Below are positions 777 to 8,463 of a DNA stretch of 8,493 nt, one piece after another (position 1 is the stretch's first letter; each line of letters starts with the position of its first letter). Location: IMG/VR virus record IMGVR_UViG_2541047885_000003; one strand, given 5' to 3'. A program made the position numbers and the translations under genes. The notes beneath the pieces are model-generated. The model saw nothing but the letters and a program-made list of their open reading frames with translations. It was not told the origin of the DNA and ran no database searches. The stretch is from a virus. Its lineage: Duplodnaviria; Heunggongvirae; Uroviricota; Caudoviricetes.

Positions 777-1708
777 GTGCGGGTATTACTTCGATCTGTT
801 CTGGTACCGGAACTCGGGCTGGTGATCGTTAAGCCGGGCCGTGAATCCATGCCGGTATTCCACAATACCCGGTTACTGGTGGAGCCGGAACCGAAAAGCA
901 TGCGTAATCTGCCGTCCGGGGTCGTTCCTGCCGCTCGCCAGCCGCTGGTGGAAGACAAAACATTGCTGCCGTTTTTCAGTAACGCACGGGTGATTCGTGC
1001 TGCTGGTGGTGCTGGTGCATTGTCTGACTGGCTGTTGCGCCATATTAAATCCTGCCAGTGGCCACACGGCGATTATCATCACAGCGAAACCGTCATTCAC
1101 CGTTATGGTACCGGCGCAATGGTGTTGTGCTGGCACTGCGATAACCAGCTGCGTGACCAGACATCCGAATCACTCGAGCAACTTGCTCATCAAAACCTGT
1201 CAGCATGGATGATTGACGTCATCGGTCACGCAATAAGCGGTACGCAGGAGCGTGAATTATCTCTGGCTGAATTATCCTGGTGGGCGGTCCGCAATCAGGT
1301 GGCGGACGCGCTACCGGAAGTGGTATTACGTCGTTCGCTGGGGTTGCGTGCGGAAAAAATCCGCTCAATGTACCGTGAAAGCGACATCGTACCGGGAGAG
1401 CAGACCGCCACCAGCATACTGAAACAGCGCACAAAAAATATTGCGCCGCTGCCTCACGCCCACCAGCAACAGAACCCACCACAGGAAAAGACGGTGGTAA
1501 GCCAGCCGACGATCCCCATCACCTGATTGGTCATGGTCAGGGCGGAATGGGGACAAAATCTCACGATATTTTCACGCTACCGCTGTGTCGGGAGCATCAC
1601 AACGAGCTTCATGCGGATCCTCTGGCGTTCGAAGAAAAGCATGGTTCTCAGGTTGATTTAATTTTTCGTTTTCTTGATCACGCCTTTGCAACTGGCGTGC
1701 TTGGGTAA
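777..1708 (+). pseudogene. DUF968/YdfU-like nin-region protein with C-terminal HNH-like motif, apparently disrupted by a frameshift
   Basis: GTG 777 with GGAGG SD; 249-codon ORF ends at 1526. A second frame (open 1379-1708, no convincing start) encodes DPHHLIGHGQGGMGTKSHDIFTLPLCREHHNELH, an HNH-type signature. The frame change must lie within 1379-1523. The DUF968 assignment is from memory. Confidence 0.5.
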
Positions 1709-3446: not shown

Positions 3447-3480
3447 TCCTTATGGACTTTGTTGTTTTAGTCCATAAGGA
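3447..3480. terminator. perfect 12-bp inverted repeat (hairpin) between convergent transcription units; possible bidirectional terminator
   Basis: tccttatggact (3447-3458), 10-nt loop ttgttgtttt, agtccataagga (3469-3480); overlaps the last codons of the minus-strand ORF 3450-3785. Confidence 0.4.
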
Positions 3481-3785
3481 CATATTTGCAGAGTGCAACG
3501 GTTATTAAAGCATTCATTCAATACGTTATCTGTATTTGTAGGACATTCCTGGCTGTTTTTGATTAAATTCCAGAATGTTTTATTGAATGGTGCTACGTTG
3601 TAAATGGTTACAGGTAGCACTTTGTTATTGAGCATGATACCTGTGTGAGTCAGTGTAAATATACTTTCAGGAGGTAAGAAAGCATCCGATTGATACCAGA
3701 TTATTAATTTTATTTTACTCCATATGACTGAAAAAGATATTCCGCATGATGGCTGGATAACTGTATCAATCACAATCCACTTCAT
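3450..3785 (-). CDS. hypothetical protein (111 aa), ORFan in AT-rich island, transcribed opposite to the phage late operon
   Basis: Minus-strand ATG 3783-3785 with AAGGA SD about 6 nt upstream; five Cys in the C-terminal third (QECPTN...[16 protein letters not shown]); base composition far more AT-rich than the flanks. No family recognised. Confidence 0.4.
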
Positions 3786-3852: not shown

Positions 3853-4045
3853 CCATAGAGCAGAATTATTTTTCTGATGTTGTTTATTGTTTATTTAAAT
3901 GCAGGGTGGTTTATATCTCGTCTTGTAGTTTATCCATGCATATCTGCTTGATGATGAGGTTTTTATTTAAGGTATGGTTTTGTGTTTTTTCTGTATTACA
4001 TGTCAGGTATTTTAAAGAATTATTTTTCAGATGGTGGAAAGAACC

Positions 4046-6006
4046 ATGGCATTTAAACACTATGATGTTGTCAGGGCGGCATCGCCGTCAGACCTTGCGA
4101 AACGACTGACACAAAAACTGAAGGAGGGGTGGCAGCCATTTGGCAGTCCGGTGGCCATCACGCCTTATACCCTGATGCAGGCCATTGCGGCGGAAGGTGA
4201 TGTCACCACACCTGTGGTGGTGAAGCCGTCGGATGGAGAAGGCGCAGTTATCAGCACCACCAGCAACCCGGAGTATTACTTTGTTGTTGCCCTAGCCGGG
4301 CGGTCAAACGGTATGGCGTATGGTGAAGGGCTTCCGCTGCCGGAGACATATGACCGTCCGGACCCGCGTATTAAACAGCTGGCGCGTCGCAGCACTGTCA
4401 CGCCGGGTGGTGCGTCCTGTAACTACAATGACATTATTCCTGCGGACCACTGCCTGCATGATGTTCAGGATTTGAGTAAGTTTTCACACCCGAAAGCCAG
4501 CGCAGCTCAGTATGGATGCGTGGGGCAGGGATTACATATCGCGAAGAAATTGTTGCCGTTTATTCCGGCGAATGCCGGTATTCTTCTGGTTCCGTGCTGC
4601 CGTGGTGGTTCTGCATTTTTGGCGGGCGATGAAGGTACCTTCAGCGAATCCACCGGCGCAAGCGAGACCTCGGCACGCTGGGGTGTTGATAAGCCACTGT
4701 ACAAGGACCTGCTTACCCGTACTCAGGCCGCACTGAAGGCCAACCCTAAAAATATTCTGCTTGCAGTGGTCTGGATGCAGGGCGAGTTTGATTTGAAACA
4801 GGGTGCATACGCCACTCAGCCGGGGCTGTTTGATTCCATGGTGGAAAAATATCGTTCTGACCTGTCGGAATTCGGAGGTCAGTGTCTCGGGGGCTCTCCG
4901 TCATCAGTTCCCTGGATTTGTGGCGACACGACCTACTACTGGAAGCAGACTTATTCTTCGCAATACGATGCGGTGTATGGTGCATATAAGACGAAATCCG
5001 CAAAAAAATCTTCTTTGTGCCGTTTATGACGGATGAAAACGGGCGAAATGTGGGTACCAACGAGCCGTCAGAAGATCCGGATGTTGCGGATATTGGGTAT
5101 TACGGAGCCGGTGGTCGAACGGACGCCAAAACCTGGACGACGGCCGACCGTAAAACGCATTTTGGATCATGGGCACGTCGTGGGATTATTTCCGACCGTC
5201 TGGCAACGGCGATTCTTGTGCATGCCGGGAGAAACGCTGAATTCATTACCGGAAAACAGCCTGATACGGTGAAGCCCACCGGACCTTCCGGTGAAGGTAC
5301 GGAGAGAGAGCCGGAAGCCCCGGTCAGTAACCGAACCCTGATGAGTCTGCTGGCGTCCGGCGAAGACCTGGCATCACAGGGCTGGCGCTATTATCACAAA
5401 CCGGCGAGCGGAGACAATGTTAACAAAAACATTGCTGAAGCGGTGGTCAGTGATGCGGGGGCTACGGGAGGTAAGGCCCTGCAACTGAATAAACCGGAAA
5501 ACCACATCTGGTTTCTGGAGCATGATGCAGCCGGACAGGGAGTGGAGTTACTGAAGAAGGGGGGACGTGTGAGCGTACGGTTTAAGTTGCCGGGTTCACT
5601 GGTGCCGAATCAGTTTGCCCTGGGCATTTACTGGCAGTTGTCGTCCCTGCCGGAGGGAGTGACGCTGGCAGAGGAAGGCAACGACATGCTGATGTCCTTC
5701 TTCCTGCAGACGGATGCGACGAACCTGAACGCGATGCACCACAAGAAGCCGAATGCGAAGCTGGATACGTTCGGGGTCTTTGATAACGGATGGCACACAC
5801 TGGCTTTTGAGTTTGCCGGAAACAACAGCATTCAGGTGACGCCGGTACTGGATGAGAAACGGGGGACGCCGTTCACACTGGTGAAATCTCCGGCATCAGG
5901 GGCGGCGGACAAACTGCAACTGACAGGCATATCAAAGGCGGCGACATATACGCTGCTGATTGACAGTGTGAAGGTGGAAGTGAACAACGCGGATGCCGCG
6001 GCATGA
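4046..6006 (+). pseudogene. nanS: prophage sialate O-acetylesterase (NanS-p-like: N-terminal DUF1737-like region + SGNH/SASA esterase + C-terminal domain), interrupted by a frameshift at an A7 tract (5002-5008)
   Basis: Frame A 4046-5029 (MAFKHYDVVRAASPSDL..., contains the GRSNG esterase block) and frame B 5017-6006 together total ~655 codons, the size of intact NanS-p as I recall it. The frames overlap at gcAAAAAAAtc; adding one A (or removing two) fuses them into ...SAKKIFFVPFMTDENG.... Confidence 0.65.
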
Positions 6007-6684: not shown

Positions 6685-6900
6685 ATGTACCAGATGGAAA
6701 AAATCACAACAGGTGTGTCATACACCACGTCAGCGGTGGGAACGGGCTACTGGTTCCTGCAGTTGCTGGACAGGGTTTCCCCGTCTCAGTGGGCGGCAAT
6801 AGGCGTGCTGGGGAGTCTGCTGTTTGGGCTGCTGACGTACCTGACTAACCTGTATTTCAAAATCAAAGAGGACCGGCGTAAGGCGGCGCGGGGAGAGTAA
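6685..6900 (+). CDS. S: class II holin, phage 21 S-type (pinholin-like), with possible dual start (Met1 6685 / Met4 6694)
   Basis: [71 protein letters not shown]: two transmembrane segments plus a charged C-terminus; near-identical in pattern to the S21/933W-type holins as I remember them; GGGAGA SD upstream. Confidence 0.85.
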
Positions 6901-6904
6901 AGTG

Positions 6905-7393
6905 ATGAATAAAAAATATGAACTGGTTGTTAAGGGGATAAATAATTACGGGGATAAGGTTACTGTTACTGTGAAGCCGGAAGGTGACGGGCAAGCGTCG
7001 CTGTTGTTGCCAGATGTGGCGATTAGTCTTGACCGTACTGAAGGTGCCACGCTGGAGTTTTACGAAGCTGAGGCGAAAAAGCAGGCGAAGCAGTTTTTCA
7101 TGGATGTTGCTGCCGGGTTATGTGAAGGGAACGAACCGTTGCCGGAAAAGCGCCCCATAATTTTAGAGGCGCAGGATGTGTTGATAACCTACAAAGGAAA
7201 GCTACCGGGAAGAATTACTGATGCTCTGAAGATGCCGCCGTCAACACTGCGGTCAGAAAAAGATGATGTTGAATCACGTATTGAAAAACTGGAGCGCTAT
7301 ATCGCTGAATTGAAAAAAAGCGCCCCAACAAAAAATGAGGTGCTTGCAGCAGATGAAATGAAAGAAGCTATTCTTGATCGCGCGGGCATCTAA
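6905..7393 (+). CDS. hypothetical protein (162 aa) inside the lysis cassette; possibly DUF1327/YdfR-like
   Basis: ATG 6905 (GTG 6902 also in frame) with GGAGAG SD overlapping the holin stop; beta-rich N-terminal half and a predicted coiled-coil C-terminus (ESRIEKLERYIAELKK). The family guess is from memory of the essQ-ydfR-rrrQ arrangement in the Qin prophage and is unverified. Confidence 0.55.
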   Translation: MNKKYELVVKGINNYGDKVTVTVKPEGDGQASLLLPDVAISLDRTEGATLEFYEAEAKKQAKQFFMDVAAGLCEGNEPLPEKRPIILEAQDVLITYKGKLPGRITDALKMPPSTLRSEKDDVESRIEKLERYIAELKKSAPTKNEVLAADEMKEAILDRAGI

Positions 7394-7407
7394 GCTGCGC
7401 TTCACGA

Positions 7408-7893
7408 TTGAAAGAGCATCTTCAGCGGCCTGAAGAAAAACGCCGCGATGAGCAGTTTGCTGCGTTTGACGATTATTGTCGGAAAGTGATGAGCAGAAAT
7501 CTCGCAGAGTGTTTCAGTATTCATAATGATAATTTCAGTGAGCTGGAATGGGAGTGTAACCGGCCATCCTTTGTTGTATCCGGTGATGCTGGGAAAATAA
7601 CCATCTCAGAAAATGGGAAAGTAACACCTCCATCGCACCAGCACAGTGAGGAGCTCATTGAATTTGCCATTGATTACCTGAAGAACAATAAAAAGCAGGG
7701 GCTGATGAAGCGCGTTGGCCGTTGCATGGGATATCTTCAGGTAGCCGCTGAGATTGAAGCGCTGGCCAGTGGTGCTGATAAGGATGCAATTGTGCGGGAG
7801 GCTCTTCTTCGTGATTTTAATACTCCACCCTTTAAAAAAGTGCCGGCTTACTGGCTTCATCCGGGGCTGACTTATCTTAAAGTGCGTATTTAG
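7408..7893 (+). CDS. hypothetical protein (161 aa from TTG 7408; 134 aa if ATG 7489 is used)
   Basis: Long open frame filling the gap up to the endolysin; no convincing SD for either start. No family recognised. Confidence 0.45.
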   Translation: MKEHLQRPEEKRRDEQFAAFDDYCRKVMSRNLAECFSIHNDNFSELEWECNRPSFVVSGDAGKITISENGKVTPPSHQHSEELIEFAIDYLKNNKKQGLMKRVGRCMGYLQVAAEIEALASGADKDAIVREALLRDFNTPPFKKVPAYWLHPGLTYLKVRI

Positions 7894-7929
7894 TGGGCCA
7901 GGGACAGCGGCTGAATATTTAATATATCC

Positions 7930-8463
7930 ATGAACACCAAAATCAAATACGGCCTGTCGGCTGCCGTTCTGGCGCTGATTGCCGCTGGTGCGCCTGCGCC
8001 TGACATTCTCGACCAGTTTCTGGATGAAAAGGAAGGCAACCACACCACAGCATACCGTGATGGTGCAGGTATCTGGACCATCTGCCGTGGTGCCATCATG
8101 GTGGATGGCAAACCTGTCGTTCCGGGCATGAAGTTGTCGAAGGAAAAATGCGACCAGGTTAACGCCATTGAGCGTGATAAAGCGCTGGCGTGGGTGGAGA
8201 AAAACATCAGAGTGCCGCTGACCGAACCCCAGAAAGCGGGGATCGCGTCATTCTGTCCGTACAACATTGGTCCCGGTAAGTGTTTCCCGTCGACGTTTTA
8301 CAGACGAATTAATGCTGGTGATCGAAAAGGTGCCTGCGAAGCGATTCGCTGGTGGATTAAGGACGGTGGCAGAGACTGCCGTATTCGTTCAAACAACTGT
8401 TACGGTCAGGTATCCCGTCGTGACCAGGAGAGCGCGCTGGCGTGCTGGGGTATCGACAGATAA
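7930..8463 (+). CDS. R: SAR endolysin (T4-lysozyme-type muramidase with N-terminal signal-anchor-release domain)
   Basis: N-terminal Gly/Ala-rich weakly hydrophobic segment GLSAAVLALIAAGA (SAR-like), then E-x8-D-x5-T spacing (EGNHTTAYRDGAGIWT) matching the T4 lysozyme catalytic triad; matches my memory of Stx-phage R proteins. Confidence 0.9.
   Translation: MNTKIKYGLSAAVLALIAAGAPAPDILDQFLDEKEGNHTTAYRDGAGIWTICRGAIMVDGKPVVPGMKLSKEKCDQVNAIERDKALAWVEKNIRVPLTEPQKAGIASFCPYNIGPGKCFPSTFYRRINAGDRKGACEAIRWWIKDGGRDCRIRSNNCYGQVSRRDQESALACWGIDR

Follow-up and report, generated by a model that had tools for sequence, protein, structure and literature searches.

The window, by which we mean the whole 8,493-nt stretch of DNA that was analysed, contains a lysis cassette in which two + strand open reading frames (ORFs) lie between a holin gene and a lysozyme gene (Table 1). 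A preliminary description of this DNA had read the two ORFs as two uncharacterised genes inserted between holin and endolysin. Its coordinates for the ORFs, the holin, and the endolysin were confirmed from the sequence and the ORF list, and the two ORFs proved to be coding sequence rather than chance ORFs, as they match phage family profiles at E values of 1e-76 to 1e-103.

Table 1. Positions of the lysis-cassette features in the window, with the evidence for each assignment.
Feature	Position (nt)	Strand	Evidence
Class II (phage 21 S-type) holin, 71 aa	6685-6900	+	Pfam PF04971, E 1.5e-32; phrog_20 and phrog_9876 (holin)
ORF1, 162 aa, 5' piece of long-form ydfR	6905-7393	+	PF07041; phrog_1085
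Single-base (C) deletion site splitting the ydfR gene	7385-7386	+	DNA alignment to intact alleles
ORF2, 161 aa, 3' piece of long-form ydfR in shifted frame	frame open 7378-7893; listed 7408-7893	+	phrog_1085
Lysozyme (endolysin), 177 aa	7930-8463	+	PF00959, E 2.4e-24; phrog_7 (endolysin)

The holin gene has two candidate ATG starts (6685 and 6694), four codons apart, with Shine-Dalgarno duplexes of -7.4 and -6.4 kcal/mol, and ends with a TAA at 6898-6900. The holin has one hydrophobic stretch (maximum Kyte-Doolittle value 1.70), and the identical 216-nt coding sequence is labelled 'class II holin family protein' in relatives. Counterparts of the window endolysin are annotated 'lysozyme' in relatives (rrrQ in some records). 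Its N-terminal segment is weakly hydrophobic, as is typical of signal-anchor-release (SAR) endolysins, with a maximum Kyte-Doolittle value of 1.74 at residue 8. The enzyme is putatively of the SAR type, by analogy with phage 21 R. The endolysin ATG at 7930 shows no Shine-Dalgarno complementarity (+0.4 kcal/mol); it is preceded by an AU-rich leader and lies 36 nt past the ORF2 stop (7894-7932).

The ATG of ORF1 lies 4 nt past the holin stop, with an alternative GTG at 6902, and has a strong Shine-Dalgarno site (duplex of -8.5 kcal/mol). This agrees with the earlier proposal that the first ORF is coupled to the holin stop. The TTG of ORF2 at 7408 has essentially no Shine-Dalgarno site (-0.5 kcal/mol), and the site at ATG 7489 is weak (-3.5 kcal/mol); the second ORF thus lacks a ribosome-binding site at its TTG start, as had been noted before. 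A scan of the + strand found no promoter-like sites, and the sole terminator-like site on this strand between 6900 and 7930 was a weak hairpin at 7852-7869.

The preliminary description had proposed profile searches for both ORFs. The first ORF had been called DUF1327/YdfR-like, and it matched Pfam DUF1327 (PF07041) over residues 1-100 with an E value of 1.1e-40 (138.2 bits against a cut-off of 25). ORF2 had no match in Pfam, NCBIfam, or PADLOC, yet the phrog_1085 profile (296 positions) joins the two ORFs: ORF1 matched its positions 1-151 (E 1e-76) and ORF2 its positions 140-296 (E 3e-103). Because one profile is matched colinearly by ORF1 and then ORF2, the ORFs are consecutive parts of one protein. 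ORF1 is colinear with residues 1-160 of an intact 329-aa gene, and the translation in the ORF2 frame, which reads ...SRGHLSCASRLKEHLQRPEEKRRDEQF..., is colinear with intact proteins. The frame-repaired conceptual protein is 90% identical to a 329-aa protein over 100% of its length. An intact single 329-aa gene is found at the equivalent position in the Stx2a phage Stx2_95, in the gap between holin and endolysin, and in Escherichia coli 2013C-4830. In E. coli ATCC 25922, this position is occupied by an intact 296-aa frame that carries both the N- and C-terminal sequences of the window. The clusters of intact proteins are large, with 648 members at 329 aa and 962 members at 296 aa, and an intact 296-aa ORF was found at each of the four loci sampled whose C-terminal domain DNA was at least 99% identical.

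The alignment placed the lesion precisely. Where the closest intact allele, from phage PhiR5_1, reads GATCGCGCGGCGCATCTAAGC, the window reads GATCGCGCGG-GCATCTAAGC, with one C missing between 7385 and 7386, and the same gap appeared in the alignments of the window to Stx2_95 and 2013C-4830. The missing C shifts the frame of ORF1, which therefore stops at the TAA at 7391-7393. ORF2 represents the 3' half of the ydfR gene read out of frame, which accounts for its odd start: its TTG encodes an internal Leu in the original gene. The region 6905-7893 is thus very probably a single long-form gene of the YdfR (DUF1327) family that is split by one missing base, rather than the two genes described earlier. 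By position it is a YdfR gene, located after a class II holin and before a lysozyme in a lambdoid late region; its reading frame, uninterrupted in intact long forms, is disrupted in this allele.

The feature is ordinary. It belongs to a known family, and its frameshifted form is already in databases, where RefSeq represents it as a pseudo 'YdfR family protein' together with the hypothetical protein WP_015674699.1. An 80-nt sequence spanning the deletion was present with 100% identity in 14 of 5,426 complete E. coli genomes (CE10, SCU-125, AR_0013, AR_0017, and others), and the 81-nt intact form of the site in 21. Among public assemblies, the exact 161-aa ORF2 occurred on 326 contigs and the exact ORF1 of the window on nine. 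The deletion is therefore a real, young allele circulating in E. coli. Its youth follows from the last 441 nt of ORF2, which show zero differences from the intact ATCC 25922 allele. The strains CE10, SCU-125, AR_0013, and others are identical to the window in the deletion and in ORF2, whereas the ORF1 of CE10/SCU-125/AR_0013-type strains has the N-terminal haplotype MKKKYELVVKGINNYPDKITVTVALEVGGYPS... and the window has an ATCC 25922-type N-terminus. In SCU-125-type strains, the same frameshifted linker is thus joined to a different ORF1 haplotype. Since the linker is joined to at least two such haplotypes, the allele is old enough to have recombined, and its commonness together with these haplotypes indicates that it is at least tolerated.

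A gene of this family between a P21-type holin and a lysozyme is normal for this cassette and is not an insertion. In the K-12 Qin prophage, the order is essQ-ydfR-rrrQ, with ydfR 4 nt past the holin stop, and a 114-aa YdfR-family gene in BP-4795 and a 268-aa gene in Stx2-86 likewise lie between holin and lysozyme. The DUF1327 domain was found in 101 phage records, all of E. coli lambdoid or Stx phages, and the C-terminal domain of the long form in five. The preliminary description had regarded the spacing of holin and endolysin as unusual and had suggested a survey of the intervening content; the relatives show that in P21-type E. coli lambdoid and Stx cassettes this gap normally holds a DUF1327 gene. 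In the literature searched, a single paper mentions DUF1327, and does so in passing; the paper on Stx flanks ends at the holin.

The modules of the long form also occur in other arrangements. DUF1327 stands alone in K-12 and BP-4795. At loci L007-L010, the modules are separate genes in reversed order, namely holin, a 213-aa protein with coiled coil and C-terminal domain, a 75-aa DUF1327 protein, and lysozyme. The C-terminal domain protein alone (185 aa or 209 aa) lies between holin and lysozyme in O157:H7 PV15-279, Escherichia sp., and Shigella flexneri. Such natural stand-alone genes start at an ATG of their own, 4 nt past the holin stop, and retain the coiled coil. Salmonella prophages contain a sister family with the same three-part plan, whose C-terminal domain is 35-46% identical. 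In these prophages the gene comes after Q and before the holin gene, which is next to the lysozyme gene. This position upstream of the holin ties the family to the late leader/lysis region as accessory cargo, whereas the junction of holin and endolysin as such is not what defines its place. After the long-form gene, a ~104-aa convergent ORF of the Stx2-86 gp06 type is present in some prophages of E. coli and Salmonella (locus L012, 2585-2899 on the - strand; L021, 1658-1972, -; L024, 4309-4626, -). This ORF is conserved across both genera, had no match in Pfam, and is absent from the window.

Alignments divided the long form into three parts: the DUF1327 domain (~75 aa), a coiled coil (RIEKLE..ELNKK), and a C-terminal domain of ~115 aa. 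ORF1 contains the DUF1327 domain at approximately residues 1-75 (nt 6905-7129), followed by a linker and a predicted coiled-coil helix, and the C-terminal domain lies at ~7549-7890 in the window. The linker is variable, with a difference of 33 codons between the 296-aa and 329-aa forms. The C-terminal domain contains the invariant motifs GRxMxxLQxAAEIE and DNPPFK..W..PG..YL. Its dN/dS ratio was 0.16-0.38 against five relatives, which indicates purifying selection across the family and therefore a true coding domain. The AlphaFold2 model of ORF2 had pLDDT values of 85-96 over residues 50-160. Searches of Pfam, NCBIfam, PADLOC, and the PDB with single sequences and with a profile gave no significant sequence relative of the domain, and no fold relative was detected. 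A local similarity to LSm3 (E 1.3) was attributed to chance; it falls in the variable linker, which is predicted to be helical.

The C-terminal domain was seen only in Escherichia, Shigella, and Salmonella sequences, and in prophage late regions in every context inspected. The family is narrow, with 20 representatives among 1.84 billion clustered proteins. DNA encoding the domain was present in 787 of 5,426 complete E. coli genomes (~14%), and a species-level genome scan returned three loci only, all from Escherichia or Shigella. The RefSeq pipeline (PGAP) calls intact 296-aa and 329-aa ydfR genes a 336-nt partial pseudogene with 'missing C-terminus' and leaves the C-terminal domain unannotated (L005, 9684-10574; L016-L019, 758-1648; L002, 1766-2755). 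In a spread sample of the 787 genomes, all 23 listed loci with at least 99% identity were unannotated at the match, as were a few loci of lower identity. This routine truncation of intact ydfR hides the domain, a well-folded module of enterobacterial prophages under purifying selection that has neither a Pfam family nor a fold relative.

The one experimental lead to function comes from the K-12 homologue. YdfR emerged from a bacterial two-hybrid screen as a protein that binds Rne(1-597) (Göpel et al. 2026, PMC13232886). It also co-purifies Rne(1-598), with YdfR residues 1-72 being sufficient for the interaction, and DNase-resistant nucleic acid (RNA) co-purifies with it (PMC13232886). Overproduction of YdfR altered few transcripts and left growth unimpaired (PMC13232886). 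The first ORF had been assigned to a family with no known function. That statement is partly outdated, as RNase E is bound in its catalytic half by K-12 YdfR (PMC13232886), and it holds to the extent that the role of the family is still inferred. ORF1 and K-12 YdfR are 47% identical over residues 1-74 (E 7e-22). This is exactly the RNase E-binding part, and we counted the similarity in favour of a role in RNase E or RNA metabolism; by homology, ORF1 may bind the catalytic half of RNase E.

Hydropathy revealed no transmembrane or signal segment in ORF1 or ORF2, whose maximum 19-residue Kyte-Doolittle values were 0.59 and 0.75, compared to 1.70 for the holin. The ydfR gene would share the Q-dependent late transcript with the lysis genes, in line with the lack of a promoter-like site on the + strand and of any terminator-like site but the weak hairpin between holin and endolysin. 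ORF1 would still give a cytoplasmic protein equivalent to the short YdfR proteins, keeping the ~72 residues that suffice in K-12 YdfR, while the C-terminal domain would be made poorly or never from the split allele. The intact protein would be an accessory, cytoplasmic late product that the phage can dispense with; it would contact and act on host RNase E or RNA by way of its N-terminal domain, and would not form part of the holin-endolysin mechanism. These steps form a tentative account to which we give somewhat less than an even chance. The RNase E interaction was demonstrated for the K-12 short form only, whose overproduction altered few transcripts, so that the physiological role should be read as putative.

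Alternatively, ORF1 and ORF2 could both be made as separate subunits, with ORF2 translated by termination-reinitiation at TTG 7408, 15 nt past the ORF1 stop, or at ATG 7489. The naturally separate modules (the 213-aa and 75-aa pair, and the 185-aa and 209-aa proteins with the C-terminal domain alone) lend this some credit, and because of them the split state need not be non-functional. The allele is also widespread and has no second lesion in ORF2, but the missing lesion carries no weight because the ORF2 DNA is 100% identical to the intact allele and has had no time for decay. Against a functional pair of genes, the TTG has no Shine-Dalgarno site and that of the ATG is weak. Furthermore, ORF2 has neither its own ATG near the holin nor the coiled coil, unlike the natural stand-alone genes, and the split falls exactly at the place explained by the 1-nt deletion. 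We therefore consider such an arrangement improbable. Slightly less probable still is a bolder version, in which DUF1327 and the C-terminal domain would form a two-part late phage system (a targeting domain and an effector) directed against host RNase E or RNA metabolism and working whether fused, permuted, or split, with both halves made from the frameshift allele and ORF2 produced by reinitiation. If true, the window would represent a gene fission caught in the act, and not a dead gene. Programmed -1 ribosomal frameshifting, as in some phage tail-assembly genes, would yield the full-length protein together with the short form, and a -1 shift within the 16-nt overlap (7378-7393) would indeed restore the full frame of this common allele. 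However, the overlap (CTT GAT CGC GCG GGC ATC TAA) contains no slippery heptamer of the form X XXY YYZ, the folding of the next 100 nt is no more stable than that of shuffled sequence (z = -0.24), and most relatives are single-frame, the allele differing from them by one deleted base. Frameshifting of this kind is very improbable.

The same very low probability applies to a sequencing or assembly error in a gene that is really intact. The window does have two other lesions compared to ATCC 25922 (a change of A8 to A7 at 5001 and a 118-nt deletion), but the ydfR deletion lies outside any long homopolymer, the 14 complete genomes with the identical 80-nt sequence are independent, and the 161-aa ORF is called on hundreds of contigs. 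The roles proposed in the preliminary description, namely regulation of lysis timing, superinfection exclusion, or abortive infection, gained no support and are unlikely to be those of the product or products. The gene does lie inside the lysis cassette, translationally close to the holin, and a genetic screen cited by Göpel et al. links ydfR to envelope integrity (PMC13232886). On the other hand, unlike antiholins, the protein is soluble and lacks transmembrane and signal segments, and the ORFs are separate from the holin frame, so that they do not have the features of an antiholin or membrane-bound regulator. ORF1, ORF2, and four relatives had no PADLOC match save one chance-level hit (E 0.015), and overproduced YdfR caused no growth defect (PMC13232886). 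The position of the Salmonella homologues between Q and holin means that the holin-endolysin position is not conserved; moreover, many strains have a frameshift in the gene, and the C-terminal domain is absent from many phages.

A single frameshifted gene also suits its surroundings. Over 94% of its length, the window shares 99.5% identity with the ATCC 25922 prophage; judged by its sequence, it is a decaying copy of a prophage of this type. The nanS-p-like sialate O-acetylesterase gene (DUF1737, SASA, DUF6645) at 4031-6006 (+) is split into 4031-5029 and 5017-6006 by the A8-to-A7 run-length change at 5001. The ATCC 25922 gene keeps A8 but is frameshifted at another point, within a G run (G7 vs G6, at the equivalent of window position 5558), and is annotated 'frameshifted'. 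A DUF968 (ydfU-like) gene at 777-1708 (+) is broken into 777-1526 and 1547-1708, with the breakpoint near 1493-1502, because of the ~118-nt deletion compared to the intact 1,050-nt ATCC 25922 gene. A third disrupted gene, ydfR, fits this picture of decay. In addition, a 111-aa ORF at 3450-3785 (-), with no match in Pfam, corresponds to the ATCC 25922 prophage gene annotated 'anti-adapter protein IraM' (L005, 6227-6562). For the window itself, the result has very little significance: two presumed genes become one accessory gene with a frameshift, in a prophage that is decaying. What interest is left is modest and concerns the C-terminal domain, which is uncharacterised, and the link to RNase E. 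Together with the report on YdfR and RNase E, the family is a reasonable, if modest, target for studying the effects of lambdoid phages on host RNA decay late in infection.

T7 gp0.7, T4 Srd, and phiKZ Dip are phage-encoded modulators of host RNase E. YdfR may be likened to them as a phage protein that contacts RNase E (PMC13232886), a proposal of similar working only: there is no relationship in sequence or fold, and the likeness concerns the contact with RNase E and not an effect on its activity. Among YdfR proteins, that of the K-12 Qin prophage (b1555, 103 aa, PF07041) belongs to the same family as the window gene and has the same position, between the holin essQ and the lysozyme rrrQ. It is a short form, consisting of DUF1327 and a short helix, whereas the window gene is a frameshifted long form with the coiled coil and the C-terminal domain. 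The intact long forms share both the position and the three-part architecture of the window gene (296 aa in ATCC 25922; 329 aa in Stx2_95, BCI50300.1; 268 aa in Stx2-86 gp05, phrog_1085). That of ATCC 25922 is nearly identical to the window in its N- and C-terminal parts, whereas the linker of the window is of the long Stx2_95/PhiR5_1 type. All these intact long-form genes are single uninterrupted ORFs, from which the window gene is set apart by its 1-nt deletion.
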